The notes under the pieces: model-generated
The model's input: the letters and a program-made list of their open reading frames with translations, nothing else
What the model was told of the DNA's origin: nothing
Databases searched by the model: none
Assembly: GCA_016932505.1 (NCBI GenBank)
Contig: JAFGCT010000007.1
Span: 8,625-48,624, forward strand
Reading direction: 5' to 3'
Length of the DNA: 40,000 nt
Source of the DNA: Candidatus Peregrinibacteria bacterium
GTDB lineage: Bacteria > Patescibacteriota > Gracilibacteria > UM-FILTER-43-11
Position numbers and translations under genes: made by a program
In this document: positions 2,040-24,847 of the stretch, piece after piece
How positions within the stretch are numbered: position 1 is the first letter of the stretch
Layout of the letters: each line of letters opens with the position of its first letter

Positions 2040-4094
2040 ATGAAAAGATTTTCAAAAAGCTTAATTGCAATCATTATCGCCACTATATTAATGGCAATTA
2101 TTTCTCTGCCGGATTCAGTTAAGTCAAAATTACCTGGTGACCCAGTTTCCGAATGGATAAAAGAGCAAAAGGTTACCCTTGGTCTTGATCTTCAGGGTGG
2201 TACTCAACTTGATTACAGAATTGACTTAAAAAGCGCAATTGCAAGAAATGAAGATGGTGACGATTCGAATGATGTACGTATTCAGGATGTTATAGAAGGA
2301 GTACGAACTACTATTGAACGTCGTGTTAATGGTCTTGGTGTATCAGAACCACAGATTTATCTTTCTAATGTTGCAGGTGAAGAACATATTATTGTGGAAT
2401 TAGCGGGTATTAAGGATATAAACGAAGCAAAAGCAGTTGTAGGTAAAACTATTCAGTTAGAATTTAAAGAAATGAAAACTGAACAAGATGCTGAAGATAT
2501 TACTGCTATTCAAACTAATGCAGATGAAATTCTTAAGAAGGCTTTAAAACCAGATGCTGATTTTATAAAAGTTGGTGAAAATGCAGTAACTAGCGATGGA
2601 AAAATTACCTTTGAACAGAATATTGAAAAATTTGAAAGCGAGCTTCCTGCACAATACAAAGGTTTATTCCCTAATATGACTGCCGGAGAAGTTTACAATA
2701 AAACAGTTCAGGGAAGCGGAGAATATATGATAGACGCAGGAGGGCAAGTAGCTGAAAAAAAGACAATTAAAATCGTTCAGTTTGTAAGTTCTGCAGAAAA
2801 AGAAAAGACTGAAACCACTGATGAACAAGTTCAAGCCAGTCACATTTTAATAAAATTCGCAGATGTAGACCCTGAAACTACTAGAACTAAGGAAGAAGCT
2901 CTTGCTCTAGCTACTGAAGTAATGGAAAAAGCAAAGGCAGCACCTGATAAATTCGCTGACCTTGCAATAGAATATTCAGAAGGTCCTACTGGGCCTAAAG
3001 GTGGAGACCTTGGTTTATTCGGACGTGGGCAAATGGTTGCAGCATTCGAAGATGCAGCATTTGGAATGGAAGTCGGACAAATATCTGACGTTGTAGAAAG
3101 TGAATTCGGATATCATATTATTATGCTAACCGATAGAGTTGAAGCTTCTGAAACTACAAAAATGGAAAAAAGTTATACCTATAACGAAATTTCATTAGAT
3201 GCTACACCTGACCCATGGAAACCAACTGGATTAGATGGCTCACACTTTAAATACGCAACTGTTACTTATACTCAAATAGGAACTCCACAAGTAAACATTC
3301 AATTTGATAGTGATGGTGGTGATTTATTTGAGCAAATAACAGAAAGGCTTACTGGCCAAAGACTAGCTATTTTCGTAGGTGGTGAACTTATCTCTGCCCC
3401 TAATGTAAATGAAAAGATTTCTGGAGGAAGTGCTGTTATTACTGGTGATTACACATTACAGGAAGCACTTCAGCTTGCTAACGACCTTAATACAGGTGCA
3501 ATCGATGCCCCTATCATTCTTAGTGGTCAGTACACAATAAGTGCTACACTTGGAGATAACGCACTTAGAGTCTCTCTTTTTGCAGGTATTGTAGGTCTTA
3601 TCGTTCTGATTCTATTTATGATTCTTTATTACAGATTACTTGGAATATTCGCAGTTCTTGCACTTATTGTTTACTCCATTATTTTTATCTTCATTCTTAA
3701 AACAATGCCAATTGTAATGACCTTAGCAGGTATAGCAGGTATTATTCTTTCTATAGGAATGGCGGTAGATGCGAATATACTGATATTTGAACGTACAAAA
3801 GAAGAACTTAATGAAGGAAAGAATTTCACAGCATCTATTCAAACAGGTTTTGAACGCGCATGGACTTCTATAAGAGACTCAAATATTTCATCTCTTATTA
3901 CTTGTGTGATTTTATGGTCATTCGGTAATTCTATTATCAAAGGATTCGCTCTTATGCTTGGTCTTGGTATTGCAGTTTCAATGTTTACAGCTATTACAGT
4001 TACACGCCAATTTATTCAAACTCTAACAGGAACTAAATTATCAAAGAATACATTCTTACTTGGAACAAAAGAGGTTAAGATTATTAATAAATAA
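2040..4094 (+). CDS. secD: Protein translocase subunit SecD carrying an inserted PrsA/PpiD-like region with a parvulin (PpiC) PPIase domain
   Basis: N-terminal TM helix then LGLDLQGGTQL. P1-domain motifs LAIFVGGELISAPNV...ISGGSAVITG. C-terminal TM bundle with GMAVDANILIFER. The parvulin signature (ASHILIKF...GGDLGLFGRGQMVAAFEDAAF...SEFGYHIIML) is embedded at aa 263-366. Confidence 0.9.
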   Translation: MKRFSKSLIAIIIATILMAIISLPDSVKSKLPGDPVSEWIKEQKVTLGLDLQGGTQLDYRIDLKSAIARNEDGDDSNDVRIQDVIEGVRTTIERRVNGLGVSEPQIYLSNVAGEEHIIVELAGIKDINEAKAVVGKTIQLEFKEMKTEQDAEDITAIQTNADEILKKALKPDADFIKVGENAVTSDGKITFEQNIEKFESELPAQYKGLFPNMTAGEVYNKTVQGSGEYMIDAGGQVAEKKTIKIVQFVSSAEKEKTETTDEQVQASHILIKFADVDPETTRTKEEALALATEVMEKAKAAPDKFADLAIEYSEGPTGPKGGDLGLFGRGQMVAAFEDAAFGMEVGQISDVVESEFGYHIIMLTDRVEASETTKMEKSYTYNEISLDATPDPWKPTGLDGSHFKYATVTYTQIGTPQVNIQFDSDGGDLFEQITERLTGQRLAIFVGGELISAPNVNEKISGGSAVITGDYTLQEALQLANDLNTGAIDAPIILSGQYTISATLGDNALRVSLFAGIVGLIVLILFMILYYRLLGIFAVLALIVYSIIFIFILKTMPIVMTLAGIAGIILSIGMAVDANILIFERTKEELNEGKNFTASIQTGFERAWTSIRDSNISSLITCVILWSFGNSIIKGFALMLGLGIAVSMFTAITVTRQFIQTLTGTKLSKNTFLLGTKEVKIINK

Positions 4095-8449: not shown

Positions 8450-10126
8450 ATGTCCAAGAAAAACCTTTTACTGAAAAAAATTCAGAATTTAAGAAAAAAA
8501 CAAATGACCTTTAAAGATCGCATGCTATTGGCAGTGGCTTCTATTGGTGCAGTTTTATTGGTTTTCTTTATATGTTATTTAATCGTATATTCATATTCAC
8601 AAAGAAACATAGCTCATTTTCTTCCTGCAAAAGATACTGTTTCTTATATAGAATTTGAGAATTTTAATCTTCAGCCAAAATTAGAGTCTTCTGAAGAAAT
8701 GATTCAAACCATGATTCAGACAAGTCTTAAGAATTTATTGAATACTGAAAACTCAACCGATATAACAAGCTGGGCTAATGGAAGATTCGGCTTTGCATTA
8801 ATAGAATCTGATTCTGCTAATTCACCAGTTTATTTTATTCAAACAAAAAGCAGAAGTAAGGCACTTAAATTCTTTAATCAATTAGCTTTACCAAACGAAG
8901 AAATAATTAAGTCGGATAAAACAAGCTCAGCGATATATTCATACAGCCAAAGCCAACTTTTTCATTTCACATTCATAGGCCCTCATGCATTTATTTCAAT
9001 GGATCAAAAAGCACTTCAGAAAATTCAAGATGTTTATGCAAATAAGATTGGGATACTAAGTGAAGATGAAAAATATGAAAAATCTTGGGGTAATTTGCCT
9101 AGAAGCAGTTGGATGAGAGCATATGTAAATTTTCAGGCATTAAAATTCAAAAGCATTCAGGTAAATAATATTGTCGAGCCTCTTAAAAGTATTATTAATC
9201 ACTTTGCAATTACCGTACGTCAGAACCCAAATGGTTTTCATTTCAATGTATTTGCAAATTTAAATAAAGATGTTCTTGAATTGCAAGAGGGCTACAAGGG
9301 AAATAGCAAATTTGCTTACAATTTAACTGATTTCATTAGTTCAAAAGACCTTGCCCTATATATAGGAGGAGCAAATTTGAGTCAGGAATGGCAGAATACA
9401 CTTTCCACAATAAGTAATTTAAATCCTGCATACGGCATTATTCTGGAAAGCATAGTAAGAGCTCAGGTAAGCAATGTATTTGGAAGAGATGTTAGCCTAA
9501 GAAATGATTTCTATCCGCTTTTCGAAGGAGAATACGCACTTGCAATCGGTAATACAGAAGACGGACTTAAAGATGTAAGACTTATTCTTTCAAACAGCGA
9601 TAAATCTTTCGCTGAAAAAAAACTAGCAAAAATGATGGACGGATTTAAGGTACTTGCAGCAAGATTCGCACCTAAAATTCATAAAGTTTTGTTACCAGAC
9701 GGTACAGAAAGCATAGAGCTTATTGCAGATAATACAAAGCTTGAAGAAGGGAAAGAAACATACGAAGGTTATGATATTCATTGTATTGATATTCAAGGAA
9801 CAAGCTCTGGCTTCTGCTACACAGTTACAGATGAGTTGATTGTAATGACAAACAATAAAGAGGCTGTAATTAATACAATCGACATGACGATTTCCCCAGA
9901 ATTCACACTTTCTCAATATCAGCCATTCCGACAAACAATAAGCAATCTAAGTAAAATTAGTGACGAAATTACTTTCATGGATATTCAGAATTTTATTCCA
10001 TTTATTGAAACAAGTGATTACGGACTACTCGCAAAACCATTCCTAGAAAAATTCGATGCAGTAAGTTGGGTAAAACATTATTTTGATGATGGCGTAAGTG
10101 CTGAGGGATACGTTTTGATAAAATAG
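8450..10126 (+). CDS. Hypothetical membrane-anchored protein (single N-terminal TM helix, large extracytoplasmic part; possibly DUF3352-like)
   Basis: Long clean ORF of 558 aa. Hydrophobic segment LLAVASIGAVLLVFFICYLIVY near the N-terminus. The family guess is weak. Confidence 0.7.
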   Translation: MSKKNLLLKKIQNLRKKQMTFKDRMLLAVASIGAVLLVFFICYLIVYSYSQRNIAHFLPAKDTVSYIEFENFNLQPKLESSEEMIQTMIQTSLKNLLNTENSTDITSWANGRFGFALIESDSANSPVYFIQTKSRSKALKFFNQLALPNEEIIKSDKTSSAIYSYSQSQLFHFTFIGPHAFISMDQKALQKIQDVYANKIGILSEDEKYEKSWGNLPRSSWMRAYVNFQALKFKSIQVNNIVEPLKSIINHFAITVRQNPNGFHFNVFANLNKDVLELQEGYKGNSKFAYNLTDFISSKDLALYIGGANLSQEWQNTLSTISNLNPAYGIILESIVRAQVSNVFGRDVSLRNDFYPLFEGEYALAIGNTEDGLKDVRLILSNSDKSFAEKKLAKMMDGFKVLAARFAPKIHKVLLPDGTESIELIADNTKLEEGKETYEGYDIHCIDIQGTSSGFCYTVTDELIVMTNNKEAVINTIDMTISPEFTLSQYQPFRQTISNLSKISDEITFMDIQNFIPFIETSDYGLLAKPFLEKFDAVSWVKHYFDDGVSAEGYVLIK

Positions 10127-10128
10127 TA

Positions 10129-10305
10129 TTGTCTGAACTGTGATTTTTTATGATTATTTTTGATGGTCGTGATTTTTTTATTAAGTGAATTGGGATTACA
10201 ACAAATACACATTCAATCGTAGAGACGTCCCGCTAAGCGGGACGTCTCTACGGTGTATTTATCATAAGAAAATCATTATAATCAAAAAAATCACAGTTCA
10301 GACAA
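10129..10305. repeat. 177-bp palindromic intergenic element with 17-bp terminal inverted repeats and a GC-rich core hairpin (MITE/REP-like)
   Basis: ttgtctgaactgtgatt at 10129-10145 is the exact reverse complement of aatcacagttcagacaa at 10289-10305. The centre is cgtagagacgtcccgc-taa-gcgggacgtctctacg (10218-10252), a perfect 16-bp stem. Confidence 0.9.
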
Positions 10306-10310
10306 AAAAA

Positions 10311-10356
10311 ACCGGTAGCGAGGGACGAATGAAATAAATCATTGTCCCCCGCCGGT
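10311..10356 (-). terminator. Rho-independent terminator of the 10399..10803 gene
   Basis: The minus strand reads accggcgggggacaatgatttatttcattcgtccctcgctaccgg followed by tttttttt. Confidence 0.7.
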
Positions 10357-10398
10357 CAAATTTGAGCGTTGGAGCCAAAGATATTGACTCGCGAAACG

Positions 10399-10803
10399 CT
10401 ACTGGGGAGTGTCGGGCTGTGAATTGCGCAGCATGTCCAACAAAATTGCCCAATCAACATTTATTTTCAGATTGTCATTATTATGCCAAATAATGATTTC
10501 TACTTTTCCTGCGTTGCGATTGTAGTTAAATATTAGAATTGCATCTCCAGCTCTCCTGTCTTCAGAGGCCGGAGCAAGGGTGCCGGCATCTTTCTCTACT
10601 TGGTATTCAATCCAATTTGCGATGACACCCCGAGTAAAGAATGCAGAACCAAATTTGGCCTGCTTCCTACCAAGACTTGTCTCACCTTCAAGAACAATTT
10701 TGAGGTAGGTGTCGTCACCGTGCTCTTCACCGTCTGTAAAAACGGAAAGTTTTACTCCATTTGCCGTAAACGTACCATTCTCTTCATTAATTCTACATGT
10801 CAT
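10399..10803 (-). CDS. Hypothetical protein, 134 aa, GC-elevated, last gene of the small-protein cluster
   Basis: Clean ORF with a terminator downstream. I found no recognisable motif. Confidence 0.65.
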   Translation of the reverse strand: MTCRINEENGTFTANGVKLSVFTDGEEHGDDTYLKIVLEGETSLGRKQAKFGSAFFTRGVIANWIEYQVEKDAGTLAPASEDRRAGDAILIFNYNRNAGKVEIIIWHNNDNLKINVDWAILLDMLRNSQPDTPQ

Positions 10804-10933
10804 AACTTTTTCCCTTCACATTATTGCCTTAGTTTTTATTAAAACTCAGACAGTATTATTATTTAAATTCGAAACTTAGAAATTACTACCAAACTTTGTT
10901 TAATTCCATATTTTTCCTTTCGTTGATTGTTAA

Positions 10934-10998
10934 TTTTGTCTCCCCAAGCATATGCCAATGACTGATTGGTCATTCAGCAGACAGTTACGGAGACAAAA
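10934..10998 (-). promoter_or_regulatory. Leader/operator-like structure: a 10-bp stem enclosing an AATGAC-N6-GTCATT palindrome
   Basis: ttttgtctcc (10934-10943) pairs with ggagacaaaa (10989-10998). The inner palindrome aatgactgattggtcatt lies at 10957-10974 and is related to the TGACCA..TGGTCA boxes upstream of the paralog genes. Confidence 0.4.
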
Positions 10999-11099
10999 GA
11001 CTAATTGTAAAAGAACATTTGGGGATTTTGGGGGCGAAATGACGAATGCCAAGTGCCCCCGAAAATTTTACCGCTTTTCCCAGAATTGAGATAAACGGA

Positions 11100-11451
11100 T
11101 TAGGTGAGATGATACTTTACAACAAGATCGAGTTGGTATTTAACGCCGAAAACAATCTTTTGATACTGAGCAAATGGCATTTCATGCGAAATGGAACAGC
11201 TTTCATTACCAATTGTAACAACGACGTAACCTTCTATCTTTTCGCTTAGACCAATCCTAAGGCTACACACCGATATCAGAAGAGAATTTGATACTGCCAG
11301 ATACTAGAGAATTAAAAACAGTCTCATCAACAACATGCACTATCGTTCTTTTTTCAGCTCCACTGCATCGAGCCACTTCGCCCGTAACTCCAAAAGCAAC
11401 TTTCGTCATTTTGGGATCAAGGGCAAAAACAAAAAACGGTTTTTCTTTCAT
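11100..11451 (-). pseudogene. Frameshifted member of the small-protein paralog family
   Basis: The N-terminal 62 codons (MKEKPFFVFALDPKMTKVAFGVTGEVAR...) stop at TAG 11263-11265. A shifted frame continues ...LSEKIEGYVVVTIGNESCSISHEMPFAQYQKIVFGVKYQLDLVVKYHLT to TAA 11100-11102. This continuation aligns with the C-termini of the neighbouring paralogs. Confidence 0.7.
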
Positions 11452-11474
11452 ATTACTCCCCTTCTGACCGACTG

Positions 11475-11855
11475 TTATTCGTTTTCGTCTGCGCCGATGT
11501 ACTTGGCAACGAGCTCGGGTTGGTAAGTTATTGATTTCAAAAGCCGATTCAGTTCGTCCCGTTCAATCAAATGAGTCAGTCCGCCTTCTCTGACAATCGA
11601 AATTATAAAACCCAACTTACGCTTGTCTTTTTTGACAAGCTCAAGAACTGATTGAGCGACTGATGAATTCGGTGATCGATATTCCCCTCTCAGAAGATCA
11701 TTCACCACTATACTTGAGCAGGCGTAGACCAATTCCAATTTTTTCTTTCCCTTTGATCTGGTTACTTCGCCTGTAACAACGAAAGCGACCCTGGTGCATT
11801 CGGGATTAAGCCCAAACACCTGAAGTGTTGTTTCAATTCTTTGTGCATCAGCCAT
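11475..11855 (-). CDS. Small-protein paralog family member (126 aa)
   Basis: LQVFGLNPECTRVAFVVTGEVTR... at the N-terminus and ...GFIISIVREGGLTHLIERDELNRLLKSITYQPELVAKY at the C-terminus. RBS aaaggaaag lies upstream. Confidence 0.8.
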   Translation of the reverse strand: MADAQRIETTLQVFGLNPECTRVAFVVTGEVTRSKGKKKLELVYACSSIVVNDLLRGEYRSPNSSVAQSVLELVKKDKRKLGFIISIVREGGLTHLIERDELNRLLKSITYQPELVAKYIGADENE

Positions 11856-11878
11856 ATTCTTTCCTTTCTTTTTAAATG

Positions 11879-12205
11879 TTACCGAACATACTTCGCAACC
11901 ATTTCAGATTTGTATCTAAACGGGAAAAATTTCATAAGCTCGATTGAACTAATGAGATGACCGTGCCCTTCTTCTCCATTAAAAATTGTAACCTGAAGCA
12001 AAAGGGGTACGTTGGTATTGGAGATTGTCATTCTGGAATCTGTACCTTGAGAAGAAACTATTCTCCTCTCAAAAAGCTTTTCTGCTTCTGGTATATCACA
12101 TTTGTGAACGGCCAAAACCTCCTCTTGTGAGCTGTCTGTTATTACAAACACAACCTTTGCGTCCTTCCTATTGGAAGTACGAAAAACAAAAAGACACGTC
12201 TTCAT
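11879..12205 (-). CDS. Small-protein paralog family member (108 aa)
   Basis: MKTCLFVFRTSNRKDAKVVFVITD...LLLQVTIFNGEEGHGHLISSIELMKFFPFRYKSEMVAKYVR. The start was moved to the ATG at 12203-12205, which follows gaaagg plus 9 nt. This removes the overlap with the upstream gene. Confidence 0.75.
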   Translation of the reverse strand: MKTCLFVFRTSNRKDAKVVFVITDSSQEEVLAVHKCDIPEAEKLFERRIVSSQGTDSRMTISNTNVPLLLQVTIFNGEEGHGHLISSIELMKFFPFRYKSEMVAKYVR

Positions 12206-12207
12206 TT

Positions 12208-12256
12208 CTAAAACCTTTCTGACCAACTGGTCAAAAAAATGCTGTTTACTATCTCC
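12208..12256 (-). promoter_or_regulatory. Conserved leader block containing the TGACCA-NN-TGGTCA palindrome next to the RBS
   Basis: The minus strand reads aaaggagatagtaaacagcatttttttgaccagttggtcagaaaggttttagaaATG, with the palindrome at 12220-12233. It is nearly the same block as at 12600-12655. Confidence 0.5.
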
Positions 12257-12596
12257 TTTTAGAATAGGTTGGATATCTGCAAACAAGAGCTGAATCGTAC
12301 TTCAACCCAATTCCAATCCTATCGAACTCCTCACAAGTAAGCGAATGACTAATAACTCGTGTATCAGTCCTTCTAATCGATACAATTACATAGCCTTCAG
12401 AAATTTTTGTAACTTTAAGCACCGTAGCACCATTTTCAGATAAACCAGATACGTCCTTAAACATAGCTTTTACAGCATTCGGATCTGCCTCATGCATGGC
12501 GACAGGATCTCCCGTCTTCTCATCAGCAATCACAACTACAGCATTAGCCAAATTAGCATCCCTAGATGATAAAAAGGCATGCAATATATTACCCAT
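12249..12596 (-). CDS. Small-protein paralog family member (115 aa), first gene of the cluster
   Basis: MGNILHAFLSSRDANLANAVVVIADE...GYVIVSIRRTDTRVISHSLTCEEFDRIGIGLKYDSALVCRY. The start was moved to the ATG at 12594-12596, which follows gaaaggaac plus spacer. Confidence 0.75.
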   Translation of the reverse strand: MGNILHAFLSSRDANLANAVVVIADEKTGDPVAMHEADPNAVKAMFKDVSGLSENGATVLKVTKISEGYVIVSIRRTDTRVISHSLTCEEFDRIGIGLKYDSALVCRYPTYSKRR

Positions 12597-12599
12597 TGT

Positions 12600-12655
12600 A
12601 TTGTTCCTTTCTGACTCACTGGTCAAAAAAAAATTGTTGTAAATTATCTCCCCAA
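12600..12655 (-). promoter_or_regulatory. Conserved leader block with the TGACCAGTGAGTCA palindrome, second copy
   Basis: The minus strand reads ggggagataatttacaacaatttttttttgaccagtgagtcagaaaggaacaatacaATG, with the palindrome at 12612-12625. Confidence 0.5.
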
Positions 12656-12811
12656 CTATAAGCATTACAAATTTAATAGAAGCGTGAGTTCAAATAACAA
12701 ACACTATTGCTTATAGCAACGGAGATAATTGCTTTGTTGTAAAAGGACAACCCCATAGTTTGGAGGCAAAAATTTTAACAGATATTTTTTATTTTGTCAA
12801 AGCCTCTTTTC

Positions 12812-12839
12812 TTGACCAATGTCCAACATTTGATAGAAT
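12812..12839 (+). promoter_or_regulatory. groESL promoter (extended -10)
   Basis: TTGACC at 12812-12817, a 16-nt spacer, then tgaTAGAAT with the -10 hexamer at 12834-12839. Confidence 0.65.
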
Positions 12840-12842
12840 AAA

Positions 12843-12869
12843 TTAGCACTCTAAATTATAAAGTGCTAA
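12843..12869 (+). promoter_or_regulatory. CIRCE operator (HrcA-binding inverted repeat)
   Basis: ttagcactc-taaattata-aagtgctaa compared with the consensus TTAGCACTC-N9-GAGTGCTAA shows one mismatch. It sits directly after the -10 box. Confidence 0.85.
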
Positions 12870-12870
12870 A

Positions 12871-12962
12871 CGCACTTTACGCGTGATGCGCCTTGCGTAT
12901 TGCGCACTGCGAATTATCAGAATTCTCGCACATCGCACATCGCTAAGCGCACATCGCACATA
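12871..12962. repeat. groES leader built from cgcac-type words in both orientations
   Basis: cgcactttacgcgtgatgcgccttgcgtattgcgcactgcgaatt...ctcgcacatcgcacatcgctaagcgcacatcgcacat, read directly. Confidence 0.85.
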
Positions 12963-12987
12963 TTTTAATTCATAAAATTTTAAAAAA

Positions 12988-13278
12988 ATGAACATCAAGC
13001 CACTAAACGGTTATGTAGTTATAAAGCCCCTAGAGGCAGAAGAAGTAACTGCAAGCGGAATTGTTATTCCAGATACAGCTAATAAAGAAAAGCCACAAGA
13101 AGGCGAAGTTGTAGCAGTTGCAAAAACCAATATCAGCGATAAAGGAACTGAGCTACCTATTGAAGTAAAAATCGGTGACAAAGTTCTTTATGGCAGATAC
13201 AGCGGAGAAGATGTAAAAGTAGATGGTGTTGAATATAAAATTGTTGAAATGACATCCGTACGCGCTATTGTTGCTTAA
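12988..13278 (+). CDS. groES: Co-chaperonin GroES
   Basis: MNIKPLNGYVVIKPLEAEEVTASGIVIPDTA...GDKVLYGRYSG, 96 aa. Confidence 0.97.
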   Translation: MNIKPLNGYVVIKPLEAEEVTASGIVIPDTANKEKPQEGEVVAVAKTNISDKGTELPIEVKIGDKVLYGRYSGEDVKVDGVEYKIVEMTSVRAIVA

Positions 13279-15166: not shown

Positions 15167-16189
15167 TTACTTATATTCATAAACTGTAAAAGTACACTTA
15201 CCAGCAAAATAGCCATGAATATAATATTCACCAGTTTTTCTGAATTCAACCGTATCACTTGTTCTATTTGAACCTTTTAGTGCCCAAATTCCGATTCCTT
15301 CAACCTCTCGTAGAAATGCTGTATCATTCTTGTTTTCACAATCATATTGAATTTTAAATCGTCCACTTGTTACATTAAAACTTCCATAACCCAATTGCCC
15401 AAATTCTTCGTTGGCATATTTTGCAATTTCTACATATCTTTGTGTTGGTGCTGCTGGCTTAATTGTTTCAATCGGTTTAGTTGGTATTTTTGGCTTAGTT
15501 AATTCAGTAGTTTTAGTTGGTACAGTAGACTTAATTGGTTCAGTTATTCTATTTTGAGTTACCTGTGTATTTTTCTCCAAAGCATTAGAAATAACACTAG
15601 GTATATCAGAGGTAACTTCATTTTGGGCTTTTTTATTAGCTGAAGTTGCAAGTATCAATAAAACAATAATAAAAATAATAAATTTTTGAAAAGCATGTGA
15701 CTGTTTTCCAAACCATTTGAGAGTTTTAATGATTTCTATAAATAGCTTATGTAACATTCCAAATAGCATACCAATTATTTCAAATATATTTATATTTTCC
15801 TTGGTAGTTTTTTCTTGTTGTACTTTTCTTGTTGGAAAAGGAATACCAGTAAACTCTTTAAATTGTCTTTCTAAGTGAAATTTAAAATTAGCCCTTCCGC
15901 CACCAAACCATAGTTCAATCACTTTTATATCATCTTGGTCATAAGCCAACTGCTTTTTCGCACGGTCTTTACTATATTTAGCACTTCCCCACATTCCATA
16001 CACTTCTATATACACATCATAACCAGGCAAATAAAAATCAGGATGAATAATAAGGCCATTAGACATTTTTAATGGATCCTCATAAATATACTCAACACCA
16101 TTATCATATAAATAATTAGCGACATCTTTTTCATAATTACTTTTAACAATTTCACCCTGCTTTGTTTTAATTTGTTTTGCGAAGTTCAT
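15167..16189 (-). CDS. Membrane protein with an N-terminal PD-(D/E)xK-like nuclease-fold domain, TM segments, a Thr/Pro/Lys-rich linker and an unknown C-terminal domain
   Basis: The N-terminus SNYEKDVANYLYDNGVEYIYEDP...IHPDFYLPGYDVYIEVYGMWG resembles the PDDEXK module found at the N-terminus of helicase IV-type proteins. Hydrophobic stretch FIIFIIVLLILATSA. Linker PIKSTVPTKTTELTKPKIPTKPIETIKPAAPTQ. Confidence 0.6.
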   Translation of the reverse strand: MNFAKQIKTKQGEIVKSNYEKDVANYLYDNGVEYIYEDPLKMSNGLIIHPDFYLPGYDVYIEVYGMWGSAKYSKDRAKKQLAYDQDDIKVIELWFGGGRANFKFHLERQFKEFTGIPFPTRKVQQEKTTKENINIFEIIGMLFGMLHKLFIEIIKTLKWFGKQSHAFQKFIIFIIVLLILATSANKKAQNEVTSDIPSVISNALEKNTQVTQNRITEPIKSTVPTKTTELTKPKIPTKPIETIKPAAPTQRYVEIAKYANEEFGQLGYGSFNVTSGRFKIQYDCENKNDTAFLREVEGIGIWALKGSNRTSDTVEFRKTGEYYIHGYFAGKCTFTVYEYK

Positions 16190-16328
16190 TAAATTTTTAT
16201 AATCTTATTATTATAGCATAAAATAAAGCAATAAGCAATGTAGCAATATAGAGTATCAATGAAATCCTTAATGTTTTTTGAAGTGTTTTGGTGTAAAATT
16301 GATTCAAGTAATTTAGAAATGAATTAAA

Positions 16329-17117
16329 ATGACTAAATTTAATGATATCAACATTAAAAAATGGAAAGAGTCAGATGTATGGACTGACAGCCTGTGGTTA
16401 ATTGATAAGAGGGTCAAAAGTGGTAAGCATAATAATAGTTATCACGGCAATTTTGTTCCACAAATTCCACATCAATTAATTTTAAGATATTCAAAAAAAG
16501 GTGACACAGTTTTTGATCCATTTTTAGGAAATGGTACAACAGCATACGAATGCGAAAATCTTGAAAGAAATTTAATAGGAATTGATATACAAAAAAAACT
16601 AATCACTCAGGTTCAAAATAATATTGATACAAATAAAAACTTTATTGAATTATTGAATGGTGATAGTACGGAGGAAAAAACATTCAATGAAGTTGAAAAT
16701 ATTTTAAAAAAATACAACAAAAAGAAAATACAATTTGCTATTTTGCATCCACCTTATGCCGATATAATTAAATTTAGCGACCTAAAATCTGATCTATCTA
16801 ATATAAAATCAACAAAAGAATTTTTAGACAAATTTTCAGTTGTATTAAAAAATACGATTGGAATTTTAGAAAAAGGAAGATACTTAGCAATTATTATAGG
16901 AGATAAATACGCTGATGGTAAATGGATACCATTAGGTTTTAATTGTTTAGATGAAGCTCAAAAGATAGGCCTAATACTAAAAAGTATTATAATTAAAAAT
17001 ATAGAAGGTAATCGCGCTAAACAAAACAAAGAACCAATCTGGAGATACAGGGCACTTGCTAGCGATTATTATATTTTTAAACACGAATATATATTAATTT
17101 TCAAAAATGATTACTAA
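16329..17117 (+). CDS. DNA amino-methyltransferase (N6-adenine or N4-cytosine type) of R-M module 1
   Basis: AdoMet motif VFDPFLGNGTT preceded by HGNFVPQIPHQLI, with the catalytic-type motif LHPPYADI placed downstream. Target base and specificity cannot be told from the sequence. Confidence 0.75.
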   Translation: MTKFNDINIKKWKESDVWTDSLWLIDKRVKSGKHNNSYHGNFVPQIPHQLILRYSKKGDTVFDPFLGNGTTAYECENLERNLIGIDIQKKLITQVQNNIDTNKNFIELLNGDSTEEKTFNEVENILKKYNKKKIQFAILHPPYADIIKFSDLKSDLSNIKSTKEFLDKFSVVLKNTIGILEKGRYLAIIIGDKYADGKWIPLGFNCLDEAQKIGLILKSIIIKNIEGNRAKQNKEPIWRYRALASDYYIFKHEYILIFKNDY

Positions 17118-17781
17118 TCCCTTCAAAGATACAACTGCATCCAACTACGATTTTAACATTATGAGTGACCTCAAATGGCATTGCACAAAATGTGAGTTGA
17201 AATCAGGCCAAGCAAAAACATGGCAAATATGGCGACATAACGGAATACAATTAGATACAGATGAAAAAGGCAATTTTTATAAAACTTTTTTATGCAAAAA
17301 ATGCAACAATAAGACAATTCATAGAAAATTAAAATCACTTACAATTCTAGAAGAAACAAAAACTAGATCTGGTCTATCAAGAAAATTAACTAAAAAAATA
17401 AAAAACATTTTAAAATGCGAAGAAGCATTATTCTTGAGGAAAATGGAAGAAAGGGAATTGGAAGTTGATCACAAATTTCCTCAAATAAGGTGGAATAAAA
17501 ACGAAGAAGAAAATAAAAATGATATGACCGAGAAAGAGATTGAACAAAAGTTTATCCTATTAACAAGAAGTAATAACCTCTTAAAATCAAGACATTGTGA
17601 AAAGTGCTTTAAGACTGGTAAGAGGGGTAATTTTCCTGGAATATATTATTGGTTTAAAGGAGGTAAGAATTGGGATAAAAAAATAGAAAAACATAATAAA
17701 AAAGGCTGTGAAGGCTGTTTTTGGAACGATCCTTACACTTGGAGAGAAAAGCTAAATAACTTAGTTAATAAAATAATTTAA
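17107..17781 (+). CDS. HNH-type endonuclease with Cys4 ribbons; candidate restriction enzyme of module 1
   Basis: ELEVDHKFPQIRW...LLTRSNNLLKSRHCEKC is HNH-like. CxxC pairs are CTKC...CKKC and CEKC...CEGC. It overlaps the methyltransferase stop by 11 nt. Confidence 0.65.
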   Translation: MITNPFKDTTASNYDFNIMSDLKWHCTKCELKSGQAKTWQIWRHNGIQLDTDEKGNFYKTFLCKKCNNKTIHRKLKSLTILEETKTRSGLSRKLTKKIKNILKCEEALFLRKMEERELEVDHKFPQIRWNKNEEENKNDMTEKEIEQKFILLTRSNNLLKSRHCEKCFKTGKRGNFPGIYYWFKGGKNWDKKIEKHNKKGCEGCFWNDPYTWREKLNNLVNKII

Positions 17782-17800
17782 CAATGTTAATAATTTACTT

Positions 17801-17810
17801 GTATATATAC
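17801..17810 (+). promoter_or_regulatory. Candidate C-box-like palindrome upstream of the controller gene
   Basis: gtatatatac is a perfect 10-bp palindrome 13 nt upstream of the ATG at 17823. It is AT-only, so it could arise by chance. Confidence 0.25.
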
Positions 17811-17822
17811 TTAAAATAGAAT

Positions 17823-18035
17823 ATGATAATTATAGATAAATACAAAGTTAAAGAAATAATGGCAAAAAGGAAAATAAACAATTATACTGAATTGGCTAAA
17901 ATGCTTGGCATTTCAAAAAATCAACTATCAAACATTTTATCAAATAGATTCAGACCGTTTAAAAGCAATGTTGAAGAAATCGCTGAATTTTTGAAAGTAA
18001 GCCCACTTGATATAATTAATGAAAAAAAGAAATAA
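17823..18035 (+). CDS. XRE-family helix-turn-helix protein, likely R-M controller (C) protein
   Basis: NNYTELAKMLGISKNQLSNILSN is an HTH motif. It is 70 aa and sits directly upstream of an endonuclease-methylase pair. Confidence 0.7.
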   Translation: MIIIDKYKVKEIMAKRKINNYTELAKMLGISKNQLSNILSNRFRPFKSNVEEIAEFLKVSPLDIINEKKK

Positions 18036-18038
18036 ATA

Positions 18039-19232
18039 ATGACCACACACGTATTTATAGTAGATTCAATAACATTTAAAATTCATTTGGAATACCTTTT
18101 TGCTGGTACTGGTGCTAAAAAAGGAAGCTCTCACAATAATGAAGGTTATTATGTAGATTTCAATAATAACCCAACAACAAATTATCATTATATAACTGAA
18201 AATATGTTATCAGGTATGATAGCGGATGGAAGCAGAATAAGATGTGGAGATAATATTTTATTTTATTTACAGCAAAATTACTCAAATAAAATTTTTGAAG
18301 GAAAATTTTATGGAATTTTTAAGGCTACACACGACTGGTCTTTTCTTGATAACTATGATAATAGTCAATTTCTTAATATTGAACTTGATAAATCATTAAC
18401 ATTTAGAACTCTTATTGAACCATACAGAGTTTATCCAGAAGGGGTAACAGAGTGGGAAGCTTTGGATGAAATTAGAAATATTCAATCTCCAAATCAAATG
18501 CTCTGGAGTTTGATTTATCGCAAACTCAAGGGGAATCGAGGTAATACAATGATTACTATGTATGAGTCAGAGAGATTATGCCAATTAATAAGGGATAAAA
18601 ACTTAAGACAAGAAATAAACACTAATAATCATAAGCTATCATTTGATCAAATTACGCAAAAAATCATAATTTTAAATGAAAATACCAATAATTATATTGG
18701 CAGAAAAGAGGAGATAAATTTACTTCCAAGATTAATCAGTAAATATAACGCAAATAAATCATTTGAGACGCATTTACAAGCATACATTGTCAAAAATATA
18801 GGTATAGGCATCAACCAAACTCTTGATAATTGCATTCTAATGGCTAATTCTGAAATTGAATGGCTCGGAAATGAGGTTTCCTGTGGTGTTGGTATGCAAA
18901 GAATCGACGTTATGCTTTCAGCCAATTTTAACGGACAGAGAACACTAATACCAATAGAATTAAAATCAGTTGAAGCTGATATAAACAATACAAAGCAAAT
19001 ACAAAGATATATCGATTGGATAGAACAGTACTATACTCCCAATAAGCAAAGCGATATTCAGCCCATCTTAATTTCTAAAAAGATTGATGATAAAAACACA
19101 GCAAAATATAAAAGCATTATATCTACTTTTAATGACTTTAATTTGCGTAATGCAACGAGATGTGAAAATCTTAAATATATTGAATACTATTTAGAAAATA
19201 ATAATTTAACCTTTAGTAAAATCACTTATTAA
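18039..19232 (+). CDS. Candidate type II restriction endonuclease of module 2
   Basis: Positioned between the C protein and a Dam-class methylase, with gaps of 3 and 2 nt. The C-terminal region contains a PD-(D/E)xK-like pattern (RIDVMLSA...IPIELKSVEA). The N-terminal domain of about 170 aa is unassigned. Confidence 0.55.
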   Translation: MTTHVFIVDSITFKIHLEYLFAGTGAKKGSSHNNEGYYVDFNNNPTTNYHYITENMLSGMIADGSRIRCGDNILFYLQQNYSNKIFEGKFYGIFKATHDWSFLDNYDNSQFLNIELDKSLTFRTLIEPYRVYPEGVTEWEALDEIRNIQSPNQMLWSLIYRKLKGNRGNTMITMYESERLCQLIRDKNLRQEINTNNHKLSFDQITQKIIILNENTNNYIGRKEEINLLPRLISKYNANKSFETHLQAYIVKNIGIGINQTLDNCILMANSEIEWLGNEVSCGVGMQRIDVMLSANFNGQRTLIPIELKSVEADINNTKQIQRYIDWIEQYYTPNKQSDIQPILISKKIDDKNTAKYKSIISTFNDFNLRNATRCENLKYIEYYLENNNLTFSKITY

Positions 19233-19234
19233 TT

Positions 19235-20302
19235 ATGAATTATATCGGTTCAAAGAAATCATTACTAAAATTTTTAGAAGAATCAATCTACAAAATTGTT
19301 GGAAAAAAAGATTTTGATTTTCTAGATTTATTTGCTGGTACAGGTATAGTTGGTCAACATTTTAAGGAGAGGGGGCATAAGATAATAGCAAATGACTTAC
19401 AATATTATAGCTATGTATTAAATAAAAATTATATAGAAAATCATAAAAGATTGGAATTCAAAGGGATAGAAAAGGAAATAAATAAAATTAAAAATATAAA
19501 TATTAATAATCGTGCAGAATTTGTGTGTGAATACCTAGATAACATTGATTATATTGAAGGTTTTATTTACAAAAATTACTGTCTAGGTGGCACTAAAAAT
19601 TCAAAATACGAAAGACAATATTTCTCCGATGATAATGGTAGAAAGACGGATGCGATTAGACAAAAAATTGAAGATTGGTACAAAAAAAATATTATTAATG
19701 ACAATGAATATTATTTTCTCCTAACAACACTTATTGAAAATATTGATAAAGTAGCAAACACTGCTTCAGTCTATGGTGCATTTTTAAAAAAATTAAAAAA
19801 ATCTGCCCACACAACATTTAATATGAAGCCAGCATATTTCCTACATAATGATAAAAAACATAACGTTTACAATGAAGATATTGAGGAACTAATTAATAAG
19901 GTCGAAGGGGATGTTTTATATTTAGATCCACCTTACAATCATCGCCAATATGCTCCAAATTATCATATATTGGAAACAATTGCCAAATATGACAACCCAA
20001 TAGTTAAGGGCAAAACTGGACTCAGAGATTACTCAAATCAGAAATCAAAATTCTCACAAAAAAAAGAGGTATTAAATTCATTTAATAATATAATCCAAAA
20101 CGCAAAAGTTAAATATATATTTCTTAGCTATAATAACGAGGGATTAATGACTGAGCAAGAAGTAAAAAATATTATGACGAAAAGAGGAGAATATGGAATT
20201 TTTAAAAAAGAATATAGTAGATTCAAAGCTGATTCTGATGACAACAGGGAGCATAAAGCAAATTCAGTAACTGAATATTTACACTATGTAATATGTAATT
20301 AG
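19235..20302 (+). CDS. D12-class (Dam-like) N6-adenine DNA methyltransferase of module 2
   Basis: MNYIGSKKSLL, DLFAGTG and LYLDPPYNHRQY motifs in the alpha-class order. Confidence 0.88.
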   Translation: MNYIGSKKSLLKFLEESIYKIVGKKDFDFLDLFAGTGIVGQHFKERGHKIIANDLQYYSYVLNKNYIENHKRLEFKGIEKEINKIKNININNRAEFVCEYLDNIDYIEGFIYKNYCLGGTKNSKYERQYFSDDNGRKTDAIRQKIEDWYKKNIINDNEYYFLLTTLIENIDKVANTASVYGAFLKKLKKSAHTTFNMKPAYFLHNDKKHNVYNEDIEELINKVEGDVLYLDPPYNHRQYAPNYHILETIAKYDNPIVKGKTGLRDYSNQKSKFSQKKEVLNSFNNIIQNAKVKYIFLSYNNEGLMTEQEVKNIMTKRGEYGIFKKEYSRFKADSDDNREHKANSVTEYLHYVICN

Positions 20303-20391
20303 AATAATGAAAATTGCATAAATACAACTATCACATTACTTCAAATTCTCGGCAACCAATTTCAAAACAAAGCAAAAATAATTAATAAATA

Positions 20392-21168
20392 GTGAATTAT
20401 ACCAAACAAATCATCGCCAAAAATGTTGCTAAGAGTATTGGAATCTTTTTAGTTTCAGGAATTATGTTTTATTTCGGAGTTAAGTATACTGCAAACGGCA
20501 TAAAAGCGGGAAAATGGACTAATGCATACATATTACAAATGATGTTAATGACTGCTGGGTTAATCTTAGGAATTTTATTAGTAAAAATGAATACTTGGTT
20601 TGAAAGATTTTCGGATAAAATTCTTGATTCAATAGAGTATGCGTTAATAGGGAATAGTGGAGAAAAACAAGTTAAAGCAGAGCTGGATAAATTTCTTGAT
20701 ATAAATGAATATAAAATTTATCGAAATATTGTATTACCAAAGAGGAAATTTGATATTGATATTATAGTACTGGGTCCAAAAGGATTAACGATATTTGAAG
20801 TAAAAAAATGGAAGGATAAAGTTATTTTTTATGAGAATGAAAAATACTTTGAGAAGATAAAACAAAAATCAGAATATAAAACAGAGATAACAAAGTGGTA
20901 TAAGAGAGATCCAAGAGAAAAGTTAGGTTGGTCATGCAATAATTTGAAGAAATATTTGGAGGAAATGGGTATTAATACAACAAATTTGCCAATTCACAAA
21001 AGCCTTGTATTCCCTAATGCCGTAGCTGAATGGAAAGGAAGCCCTGGTGTTTTTATTATTTCTGGACTAGAAGGACTAAAGAAATATTTTGTTGATGATA
21101 ATCGCAAAAAAATTTCAACTGATGATTATATAAAGTTAAAGGAGATATTTGATACATTAATAAAATAA
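20392..21168 (+). CDS. Membrane-anchored NERD (nuclease-related domain) protein
   Basis: Two N-terminal hydrophobic helices, then GNSGEKQVKAELDKFL...YKIYRNIVLP...DIDIIVLGPKGLTIFEVKKW, the NERD signature. GTG start as in the ORF track. Confidence 0.75.
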   Translation: MNYTKQIIAKNVAKSIGIFLVSGIMFYFGVKYTANGIKAGKWTNAYILQMMLMTAGLILGILLVKMNTWFERFSDKILDSIEYALIGNSGEKQVKAELDKFLDINEYKIYRNIVLPKRKFDIDIIVLGPKGLTIFEVKKWKDKVIFYENEKYFEKIKQKSEYKTEITKWYKRDPREKLGWSCNNLKKYLEEMGINTTNLPIHKSLVFPNAVAEWKGSPGVFIISGLEGLKKYFVDDNRKKISTDDYIKLKEIFDTLIK

Positions 21169-23560: not shown

Positions 23561-24847
23561 TCAGGCAGGAGTGGGAGCTTCTGGAGCAGGAGCTTCTGGG
23601 GCGGGAGGAGCTACCGCGTCGTCATTGTAAGGCTCTTCGGGCACGTCGCCCTCATCATCTTCAGCCTCTGTCTCTTCGTCCGGCTCGTCATCGGTTAGTT
23701 CAAATTTAGCGGTCTTTGACCTCCTTTCCAATGCTTTTTTTTGTTGTTTGAGCTCGTTTGTAAGCTGCTTATTTTCCTCAAGAGTGTCTTTAAAAGCCTT
23801 GATGAGTACGGGCAATCCTTCAACCATTATTTGATTCGGCTGATTGACTTCCCGAAGTTCATCGAGGAACTGCTCGTTGGTCTTCCGGGTTTTAAGCTCA
23901 TCTCTGAGCTTTTCAATCTCGGCGCCAGCCCTAGTAAGCGATTCCGTCAACTCGGCATTGTCGTTGATGAGATTAGTCTTCTCTTTGTTGAACCTCTGTT
24001 TTTCGATAAACGAAAGATAGAAAAGAACTCCGTAACAAATGACAAAAAGAGTGGCTATTGCAGCAAACAACGATCTTCTTTCGCGAAGCCGACTTTGTAA
24101 GGAAGCTGCCGCAATACACGGCCGACCAATATAATAACAATTGCCGTCATCATTCAAGGCATTACCAGACTCTGGAGGAGCTTTTTCCTCCACGTTTACT
24201 GAGGCGAACAAACCCTTATCAAGTGGTGGTTTATCATGTCCCATATCTTCAAAAGTACCACCAGTTCCAACGTGTCCATGCCTGTAATCAGTGGTTTCCC
24301 TTCCAGCATCGTCGTCGACATCTTCGTCGTCTGAGCTTTCGTTTTCCACATCCTCATCCACAGGCTCCAAGGTAATTCTTTGACCACCCGCCCCCTCTAC
24401 TGTATCGTCCTCAACATGGTCTAAAATATTTGGACCCTGCGCTCTCTCCTCAGCAAAAAAGTAGCGTTCATCATTTGACATCTGCCCGTCATCGTCGCAA
24501 CCAGGAAGTAGTTTTTCAAAATCAGGAAGAGCATGAGTATTAACAAACAATCCATCAAAATCAGGGGCACCAGCTCCTGCTCCTTCAGCAGCAGCTCTCT
24601 CCGCGGCAACATCCACCTTCGCAGTATCATCTTCTCTTTCATCTCCACCATCGGTTTTACCGTCAGGTTCAGCATCAGGCTCATCATCAGGTTCGCCATC
24701 GGTTTTACCGTCAGGTTCAGCATCAGGCTCATCATCACCTAAATCCAAATTCCAATTCTCAAACGTTGCTCCTATTCCTTCTTCTCCATTTCCTCCATCA
24801 GTTGTTACACCGCCTTGTCCTTTTTTTCCATCGTTTTGTTCTGACAT
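23561..24847 (-). CDS. GC-rich acidic low-complexity protein with one TM helix, a coiled-coil region and a Pro/Ala/Glu tail (428 aa)
   Basis: Repeats DAEPDGKTDGEPDDEPDAEPDGKTDG, TM segment LFAAIATLFVICYGVLFYLSFI, heptad-like region NLINDNAELTESLTRAGAEIEKLRDELK, and tail APPAPEAPAPEAPTPA. Confidence 0.8.
   Translation of the reverse strand: MSEQNDGKKGQGGVTTDGGNGEEGIGATFENWNLDLGDDEPDAEPDGKTDGEPDDEPDAEPDGKTDGGDEREDDTAKVDVAAERAAAEGAGAGAPDFDGLFVNTHALPDFEKLLPGCDDDGQMSNDERYFFAEERAQGPNILDHVEDDTVEGAGGQRITLEPVDEDVENESSDDEDVDDDAGRETTDYRHGHVGTGGTFEDMGHDKPPLDKGLFASVNVEEKAPPESGNALNDDGNCYYIGRPCIAAASLQSRLRERRSLFAAIATLFVICYGVLFYLSFIEKQRFNKEKTNLINDNAELTESLTRAGAEIEKLRDELKTRKTNEQFLDELREVNQPNQIMVEGLPVLIKAFKDTLEENKQLTNELKQQKKALERRSKTAKFELTDDEPDEETEAEDDEGDVPEEPYNDDAVAPPAPEAPAPEAPTPA

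Follow-up and report, generated by a model that had tools for sequence, protein, structure and literature searches.

In a metagenome-assembled genome (MAG) of Candidatus Peregrinibacteria (GenBank assembly GCA_016932505.1), the spacer between the gene of a DUF3352 protein and the groES promoter appears to hold a self-contained, lineage-specific accessory cassette, namely a tandem family of orphan genes with one broken copy and an unrelated orphan gene, equipped with a duplicated promoter-leader module. We put the probability of this reading at about 65%. The stretch of DNA analysed (the window) comprises 40,000 nucleotides of contig JAFGCT010000007.1 (positions 8,625 to 48,624, forward strand), and the cassette occupies about 2.5 kb of it on the minus strand, at roughly 10304-12811. 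The open reading frame (ORF) list and the minus-strand sequence confirmed five minus-strand ORFs between a palindrome at 10129-10305 and the groES promoter, at the positions given for them in an original prediction that had been made from the DNA letters. NCBI annotates the products as hypothetical proteins (JW758_01365-01385) encoded on a contig of 149 kb. The genes, which are predicted to form two transcription units (A-B-C-D and E), are as follows.

12249-12596, minus strand: paralog A, 115 amino acids (aa), NCBI JW758_01385
11879-12205, minus strand: paralog B, 108 aa from the ATG at 12205
11475-11855, minus strand: paralog C, 126 aa, JW758_01375
11100-11451, minus strand: paralog D, frameshifted, fragments of 62 aa and 56 aa, 117 aa if repaired
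10399-10803, minus strand: gene E, acidic orphan protein of 134 aa, JW758_01365

Each of the five genes carries a purine-rich sequence resembling a Shine-Dalgarno (SD) sequence 6-10 nt 5′ of its start codon. The NCBI version of B is a protein of 135 aa that starts from a TTG at 12286 (11879-12286, minus strand) and overlaps the end of A. Judging from the sequence this call is probably too long, because the paralog alignment begins only at the ATG at 12205 and a conserved SD hairpin lies directly upstream of that codon.

As had been proposed, sequence comparisons show that A-D, although very diverged, are genuine tandem paralogs; together they make up one orphan family. Pairwise BLASTP searches gave E-values of 8e-15 (C-D), 2.5e-7 (A-D), 9e-5 (B-C) and 0.03 (A-B), and Smith-Waterman comparisons against 500 shuffles yielded z-scores of 3.8-21.2 for all six pairs. 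The similarity was confined to the annotated frame, with a C-D score of 131 in this frame and at most 60 in the other five, which argues for constraint at the protein level. Three of the four paralogs are intact; these have diverged to 17-30% identity, and the coding DNA of the paralogs is only about 50% identical. Their alignment contains a C-terminal Y-x3-[LM]V[ACV][KR]Y motif, an hhV[ST]I strand (h, hydrophobic) and a conserved His, and the hydrophobic-strand patterns are likewise conserved among the paralogs. All four are soluble by computation (maximum 19-residue hydropathy of at most 1.03, no signal peptide, no transmembrane segment), with isoelectric points (pI) of 7.7-8.6. Among the shared motifs of the original prediction, the C-terminal [LM]V[ACV][KR]Y and the hhV[ST]I block held, and the distance from the Ile to the His had to be corrected from six to 7-9 residues. 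The N-terminal motif (A/V)(V/F)x(V/I)T(G/D) does not extend to all copies, as paralog A has Ala where the others have Thr. The fifth gene proved to be unrelated to the other four, as expected. Its product is acidic (pI 4.9), and Smith-Waterman z-scores below 1 against each of A-D together with an hhalign E-value of 0.19 ruled out that E is a hidden paralog.

Paralog D is indeed frameshifted. Its first frame ends at an in-frame stop codon at 11263-11265, within GGTGTGTAG, and reading resumes in the +1 frame; if the (GT)3 tract at 11265-11270 is lengthened by one GT, D becomes a protein of 117 aa that aligns end to end with the other paralogs. The frameshift is also present in an independent Logan assembly (run SRR13394437), which matches the window at 100% identity over 5619 bp, and it is therefore not an assembler artefact. 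The sole repeat at the frameshift is the (GT)3 run, whose short length provides no argument for phase variation.

Database searches recovered no relatives of these proteins, in agreement with the earlier failure to match them to any known family. A profile of the four paralogs returned only self matches from 5.8 billion clustered proteins, and the same four proteins only from 1.84 billion representatives read exhaustively with HMMER; a search with the E protein likewise matched only itself. Searches of A-E against Pfam, PHROGs and NCBIfam gave nothing beyond chance-level matches and no described immunity family at E≤1, the PADLOC defence models assigned zero families to all five proteins, and the paralog profile found no match among PDB sequences. 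In particular, no profile search placed the family in a housekeeping family; such a placement would have spoken against the original prediction. A viral origin was rejected, since viral contigs, phage genomes (at the DNA level and by tblastn) and PHROGs returned only chance-level matches with E≥0.1. Two further candidates, small heat-shock proteins (sHSPs) and GroES-like proteins, were rejected on the basis of Pfam and of Foldseek against PDB, with no PF00011 match at E≤1 and no sHSP among the Foldseek PDB matches. Rfam searches with the leaders described below gave no match. Both the protein family and the leader module are undescribed. Orphan tandem paralogs and lineage-only genes are commonplace in genomes of the candidate phyla radiation (CPR).

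The cassette is, by prediction, a complete expression unit with two promoters, their leaders and a strong terminator. The following elements were predicted.

12772-12800, minus strand: promoter P_A, TTGACA-17-TAAAAT with an upstream TG (extended -10), 11 of 12 matches to the sigma-70 consensus
12737-12749, minus strand: pyrimidine box of leader A, TGTCCTTTTACAA, complementary to the SD of gene A
12642-12730, minus strand: long hairpin of leader A, base helix AAUUAUCUCC/GGAGAUAAUU, leader z-score -3.75
12604-12633, minus strand: SD-occluding hairpin 5′ of A, U9 + GAC pairing with GUC + AGAAAGGAA
12213-12240, minus strand: SD-occluding hairpin 5′ of B, U7 + GACC pairing with GGUC + AGAAAGG
11459-11474, minus strand: remnant 5′ of D of the 3′ half of the SD hairpin, CAGTCGGTCAGAAGGG
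11025-11052, minus strand: promoter P_E, TTGGCA-16-CAAAAT, a duplicated, weaker copy of P_A between D and E
11005-11017, minus strand: pyrimidine box of leader E, TGTTCTTTTACAA, pairing with the SD region of E in the minimum free energy (MFE) fold
10934-10998, minus strand: long hairpin of leader E, base helix UUUUGUCUCC/GGAGACAAAA, leader z-score -3.90
10886-10909, minus strand: SD-like sequence (a good SD) and mini-ORF of 7 codons (MELNKVW) right after the hairpin of leader E
10304-10355, minus strand: intrinsic terminator of E, GC-rich hairpin followed by U8; a 105-nt stretch folds with -43.4 kcal/mol (z-score -6.7)

P_A and the groES promoter (12812-12839) point away from each other, with their -35 boxes 11 bp apart, and the CIRCE operator (12843-12869), located 3′ of the groES promoter, is 43 bp away from P_A. 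Both P_A and P_E are followed by the box TGYYCTTTTACAA and by a long hairpin with a conserved base. A third copy of this leader is found in one of seven relatives (designated L002), where the fold has a z-score of -3.08. In leader A the hairpin base is AUCUCC/GGAGAU; leader E and L002 share GUCUCC/GGAGAC, which amounts to one compensatory change from an A-U to a G-C pair. Promoter, box and hairpin occur together at these three sites only, as judged from the window and the corresponding loci of the seven relatives, and the box by itself is likewise confined to the three leaders. A search of metagenome contigs with the leader pattern TTGACCAGTNNGTCAGAAAGG gave 17 matches, which were all discarded as unrelated coding sequences with no family ORF nearby. 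The position of the mini-ORF behind leader E parallels that of the start of gene A behind leader A, and the mini-ORF may be either what is left of the start of a fifth paralog that once followed the duplicated leader, or a leader peptide.

Translation of the cassette genes might be gated at the RNA level, since the box of each of the three leaders is able to base-pair with the SD of the gene behind it, bridging the long hairpin, which would act as a clamp. This pairing is part of the MFE folds of leader E and of the L002 leader, and in leader A it is a near-optimal alternative (-44.5 vs. -47.8 kcal/mol for the MFE fold). For genes A and B a conserved local hairpin would add further gating through base-pairing of a U-run to AGAAAGG. 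This hairpin is formed by an element of 33 nt with 85% identity between the copies 5′ of A and B, half of which is left 5′ of D; its predicted stem has 12 bp, with 7-9 U opposite AGAAAGG(AA). The predicted probability that the SD is paired at 37 °C is 0.98 for A and 0.92 for B, compared to 0.24-0.36 for C, D and E. At 45 °C it is still predicted to be 0.94 (A) and 0.88 (B). With 85% identity in the leader DNA compared to only about 50% in the coding DNA, we argue that the leader is under selection.

That the locus is accessory, as originally suspected, follows from the comparison with the seven genomes recovered with the upstream DUF3352 protein as probe, together with the atypical GC content at third codon positions (GC3). 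The gene order topA-DUF3352-groES-groEL is kept in all seven relatives. Their gaps between DUF3352 and groES measure about 80, 114, 194, 630, 705, 850 and 986 bp, compared to 2861 bp here, and the cassette is therefore regarded as a lineage-specific insertion. In the closest relative (L001; DUF3352 78% identical, groEL 90%), nucleotide homology to the window ends at 10124 and returns at 12827, at the CIRCE operator. Base composition points in the same direction, albeit less strongly than had been proposed. The GC content of 10399-12700 is raised to 0.392 compared to 0.338 elsewhere in the window, which places it at the 93rd percentile among windows of this size, a real but modest difference, and the earlier figure of 45-47% was overstated; groEL already reaches 0.409. 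GC3 is the clearer signal, being 0.30-0.42 in the five cassette genes compared to 0.18-0.28 in most neighbouring housekeeping genes. The cassette ORFs also show the GC1>GC2 periodicity typical of coding sequence.

The spacer of L002 encodes a minus-strand ORF of 122 aa (X). Homology between the window and L002 covers 12771-12869 (99 nt, 79% identity, E 9e-20) and reaches 56 nt further left than in any other relative; the additional stretch spans the minus-strand promoter. The promoter of L002 also reads TTGACA-17-TAAAAT and is as far from the groES -35 as P_A is; the box and the hairpin base recur behind it, and a small hairpin directly adjoins the SD. X is colinear with C (z-score 4.7, not equalled by any of 500 shuffles; E 1e-3 across 92 columns in BLASTP with BLOSUM45), it is devoid of the C-terminal motif of the family, and a protein search with it matches only itself. 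X is probably a very diverged family member, and its position and the regulatory homology support this assignment more than its protein sequence does. Neither this homolog nor the duplicated promoter-leader module and the SD-occluding hairpins had been recognised in the original prediction.

Two other relatives hold different inserts in this spacer. In L001 (7688-8089) an element of about 370 bp rich in nested inverted repeats is flanked by the 16-nt direct repeat CAAAAAGATATTGACC, which takes in the groES -35. The sequence AAAGATATTGAC recurs in the window at 10377-10388 by the stop codon of E; this 12-nt match alone has an E-value of about 0.5. Repeat and recurrence may indicate a recurrent insertion hot spot at the groES promoter, a statistically weak suggestion. 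A clean target-site duplication (AAAGATATTGAC / TTGAC at the cassette edges) is doubtful. Its position is suggestive in comparison to L001, but the E-value is about 0.5, and the terminator of E falls outside that boundary, which contradicts such a reading. In L004 the spacer holds an ORF of 242 aa (L004 5226-5954, minus strand) with a signal-peptide-like N-terminus, also behind a divergent TTGACA promoter beside the groES -35. As a relative of the family it was discarded, with one z-score of 4.6 (with B) and no support from BLASTP or hhalign.

Structure prediction with AlphaFold2 on the four-sequence alignment gave one usable model each for A (predicted local distance difference test, pLDDT, 75) and C (pLDDT 66). 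Both models have the same order of elements, with three strands, a helix, three or four strands and two C-terminal helices. A-D are predicted to be small beta-rich domains (beta-beta-beta-alpha, 3-4 strands, two helices), for which binding to a partner would be a more likely mode of action than catalysis. Foldseek against PDB gave nothing at E<0.1, the top match being an Hsp70 substrate-binding domain (E 0.12, TM-score 0.24). The best TM-scores in PDB (0.36-0.39, E 0.3-0.5, not significant) belong to PH-like beta-sandwich domains (Ran-binding domain 2y8f, USP37 PH 3u12), which share with the models seven antiparallel strands followed by a C-terminal helix, whereas the models have an extra helix between strands 3 and 4. 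In BFVD the two models independently retrieve a common set of uncharacterised proteins from Bacillus phages (W5QUN3, A0A222Z2Z6 and relatives), with E-values of 4e-3 to 6e-2, TM-scores of 0.44-0.61, probabilities up to 1.0 and 6-13% identity, at modest model confidence. These phage proteins (W5QUN3 and W5QUH6 of BPS10C, A0A222Z2Z6 of PPIsBest, gp208 and gp212 of W.Ph.) are similar in size to A-D (about 120-145 aa) and occur in several copies per phage genome; they differ in that no sequence-level link to A-D is found, and they are themselves uncharacterised. We regard the modelled resemblance as a reproducible lead that is not significant and not informative on function.

The genes around the cassette form a variable, defence-rich neighbourhood, which is circumstantial for a role in conflict. 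Upstream lie genes for a SecD/peptidyl-prolyl isomerase fusion, RNase H, topoisomerase I and DUF3352. Directly after groEL follows an island of low GC content (0.25-0.30) at 15167-21168 with the following genes.

within 15167-21168: PD-(D/E)XK-like protein, 340 aa
16329-17781: type II methyltransferase and restriction endonuclease
within 15167-21168: NucS-like protein, 397 aa
19235-20302: second methyltransferase, D12-class
20392-21168: NERD nuclease

The relatives hold other accessory genes after groEL, and toxin-like or DUF3800 genes occur in their groESL neighbourhood. In L001, a DUF3800 gene followed by a DUF3800-IX small RNA (Rfam RF02968, 64 bits) was observed directly 3′ of groEL (L001 10284-10993). 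Inside or directly beside the cassette, which is flanked by DUF3352 and groES, Pfam and PADLOC scans of the neighbours detected no toxin, secretion, effector or defence gene.

Several further observations were made in the window. In the SecD/SecF-type protein (2040-4094, plus strand) the P1 subdomains of SecD are separated by an inserted peptidyl-prolyl isomerase domain of PPIC type, an unusual fusion. The palindrome at 10129-10305 is a nested structure of 177 bp with perfect outer arms of 21 nt and a central perfect GC-rich hairpin of 17 bp (10218-10252), and it sits between the convergent genes of DUF3352 and E. The Logan contig ends at its centre (10237). Rfam searches with the palindrome gave chance-level matches only, and it could be a bidirectional terminator or an element resembling a miniature inverted-repeat transposable element. 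The groES 5′ untranslated region (UTR) 3′ of CIRCE (12870-12987) measures about 118 nt compared to about 70 nt in L001 and contains small palindromes and the GC-rich repeat CGCACATCGCACAT twice (12927-12961), all absent from the relatives. At 0.469 (GC1 0.646), the GC content of an ORF of 428 aa (23561-24847, minus strand) is the highest in the window. Pfam gave no match to this ORF and PADLOC only a weak one to PDC-S06, and it may be another foreign gene.

Regarding the function of the cassette, a conflict-related or niche-specific accessory role is, tentatively, the most likely class, because of the fast divergence, the tandem expansion, the decaying copy, the atypical GC3 and the variable, defence-rich neighbourhood. 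Immunity-gene arrays of polymorphic toxin systems, such as CdiI or Imm arrays and acquired interbacterial-defence clusters, are among the closest known systems and share with the cassette tandem small soluble paralogs that have diverged near beyond recognition, an atypical accessory island and some decaying copies. In an orphan immunity or anti-defence array each paralog would bind and neutralise a different toxin or defence effector, and duplication and divergence would track an arms race. Such an array would account for one paralog being pseudogenised and for the insertion with atypical GC3, and would suit the island with restriction-modification, PD-(D/E)XK and NERD genes, the toxin-like or DUF3800 genes of the relatives and the weak modelled likeness to multi-copy phage proteins. 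We nevertheless consider it rather unlikely, given that the cassette has no cognate or remnant toxin gene and neither a secretion nor an effector gene in or beside it, that no Pfam immunity family, PADLOC or PHROG model matches, that viral contigs and phage genomes yielded no relatives, and that the family is found in two genomes only, whereas immunity families are usually widely scattered. The frameshift in D, the mini-ORF relic after leader E, the atypical GC3, the different inserts in the same spacer of L001 and L004, the recurrence of AAAGATATTGAC at 10377-10388 and a modelled fold that resembles phage proteins only would also fit a decaying remnant of a mobile element or prophage ('moron' type) at a groES-promoter hot spot, which would bring little benefit to the host and drift to loss. 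Such a remnant is unlikely, as the cassette is free of integrase and transposase genes and shows neither terminal inverted repeats nor a clear target-site duplication, the match of 12 nt by itself has an E-value of about 0.5, no viral relatives were found, and the persistence of three intact paralogs at 17-30% identity with frame-specific conservation and well-kept leaders implies long-term purifying selection.

The cassette and the CIRCE-controlled groESL operon share a bidirectional promoter region, in an arrangement that is kept in L002, and this invites an explanation in which the proteins are stress-gated and linked to the chaperonin operon, with the U-run/SD hairpins serving A and B as RNA thermometers similar to fourU elements. 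The fourU class is defined by consecutive U residues (at least four) paired with the SD in a 5′-UTR stem (PMC10586365, PMC3185406), and the hairpins of A and B, next to a heat-shock operon, resemble fourU thermometers such as those of Salmonella agsA and B. subtilis SPbeta blyA (PMC3185406, PMC10586365) in that a run of U pairs with the SD. They differ from these in that their 7-9 U belong to a stem of 12 bp, which by prediction does not open at 45-55 °C, well above physiological temperatures, in the presence of a second, long-range anti-SD box, and in that only two of five genes (not C, D or E) have the hairpin. Rfam gave no FourU or ROSE match at E≤1 in 10000-13000, nor at the gathering score across the window. 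The proteins are moreover not Hsp20-like and have no confident Foldseek PDB match, and most relatives have groESL without the cassette, which therefore is not part of a conserved heat-shock regulon; a stress-gated role of this kind is quite unlikely. Another alternative is that the ORFs are spurious, i.e. that they are non-coding duplicated DNA open by chance, as might be suspected from the lack of homologs anywhere and from structure models of low to moderate confidence. This is highly improbable in view of paralog similarity in the annotated frame only, an SD-like sequence at the right distance for each ORF, the GC1>GC2 periodicity, the conserved hydrophobic-strand patterns and two independent models with the same topology.

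Some points weigh against the reading of the locus as an accessory cassette with its own regulated leader module. The promoters, leaders and SD occlusion are in silico predictions throughout, and the conservation of the leader is read from three copies and one compensatory pair. The membership of X in the family depends on a single significant pair (X-C), and X was not significant against the family profile in hmmsearch and hhalign. One of five AlphaFold2 models per protein was usable, and no Foldseek match reached E<1e-3. What ties the proteins to a partner or to conflict is their location and evolutionary mode only. Lastly, the closest relative L001 is without the cassette and the more distant L002 has it, so that the history of the cassette must involve loss, transfer or repeated insertion.

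A bolder version of the accessory-cassette reading, speculative and as a whole doubtful, would combine these elements into a self-regulated module of Peregrinibacteria, with a new beta-sandwich family and a new leader RNA, in which SD occlusion by box and clamp is backed by the U-run hairpins as a second lock, that inserts repeatedly at the groES promoter. The proteins would then be binders in conflict or stress, switched on only once heat, a helicase or a trans-acting factor opens the leader.

The immediate impact of the finding is small, in that it adds one more orphan family to an orphan-rich group. The cassette is a clear-cut, bounded case of the gain and expansion of lineage-only genes in episymbiotic CPR bacteria, with the conserved housekeeping spacer between DUF3352 and groESL as a landing pad and with promoter, leader and terminator arriving as parts of the insert. 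A leader module that proves functional would represent a new translational control element. Should the proteins act as binders in conflicts with phages or hosts, a family would be added to what CPR bacteria are known to use for defence and anti-defence, a repertoire that is still poorly charted.

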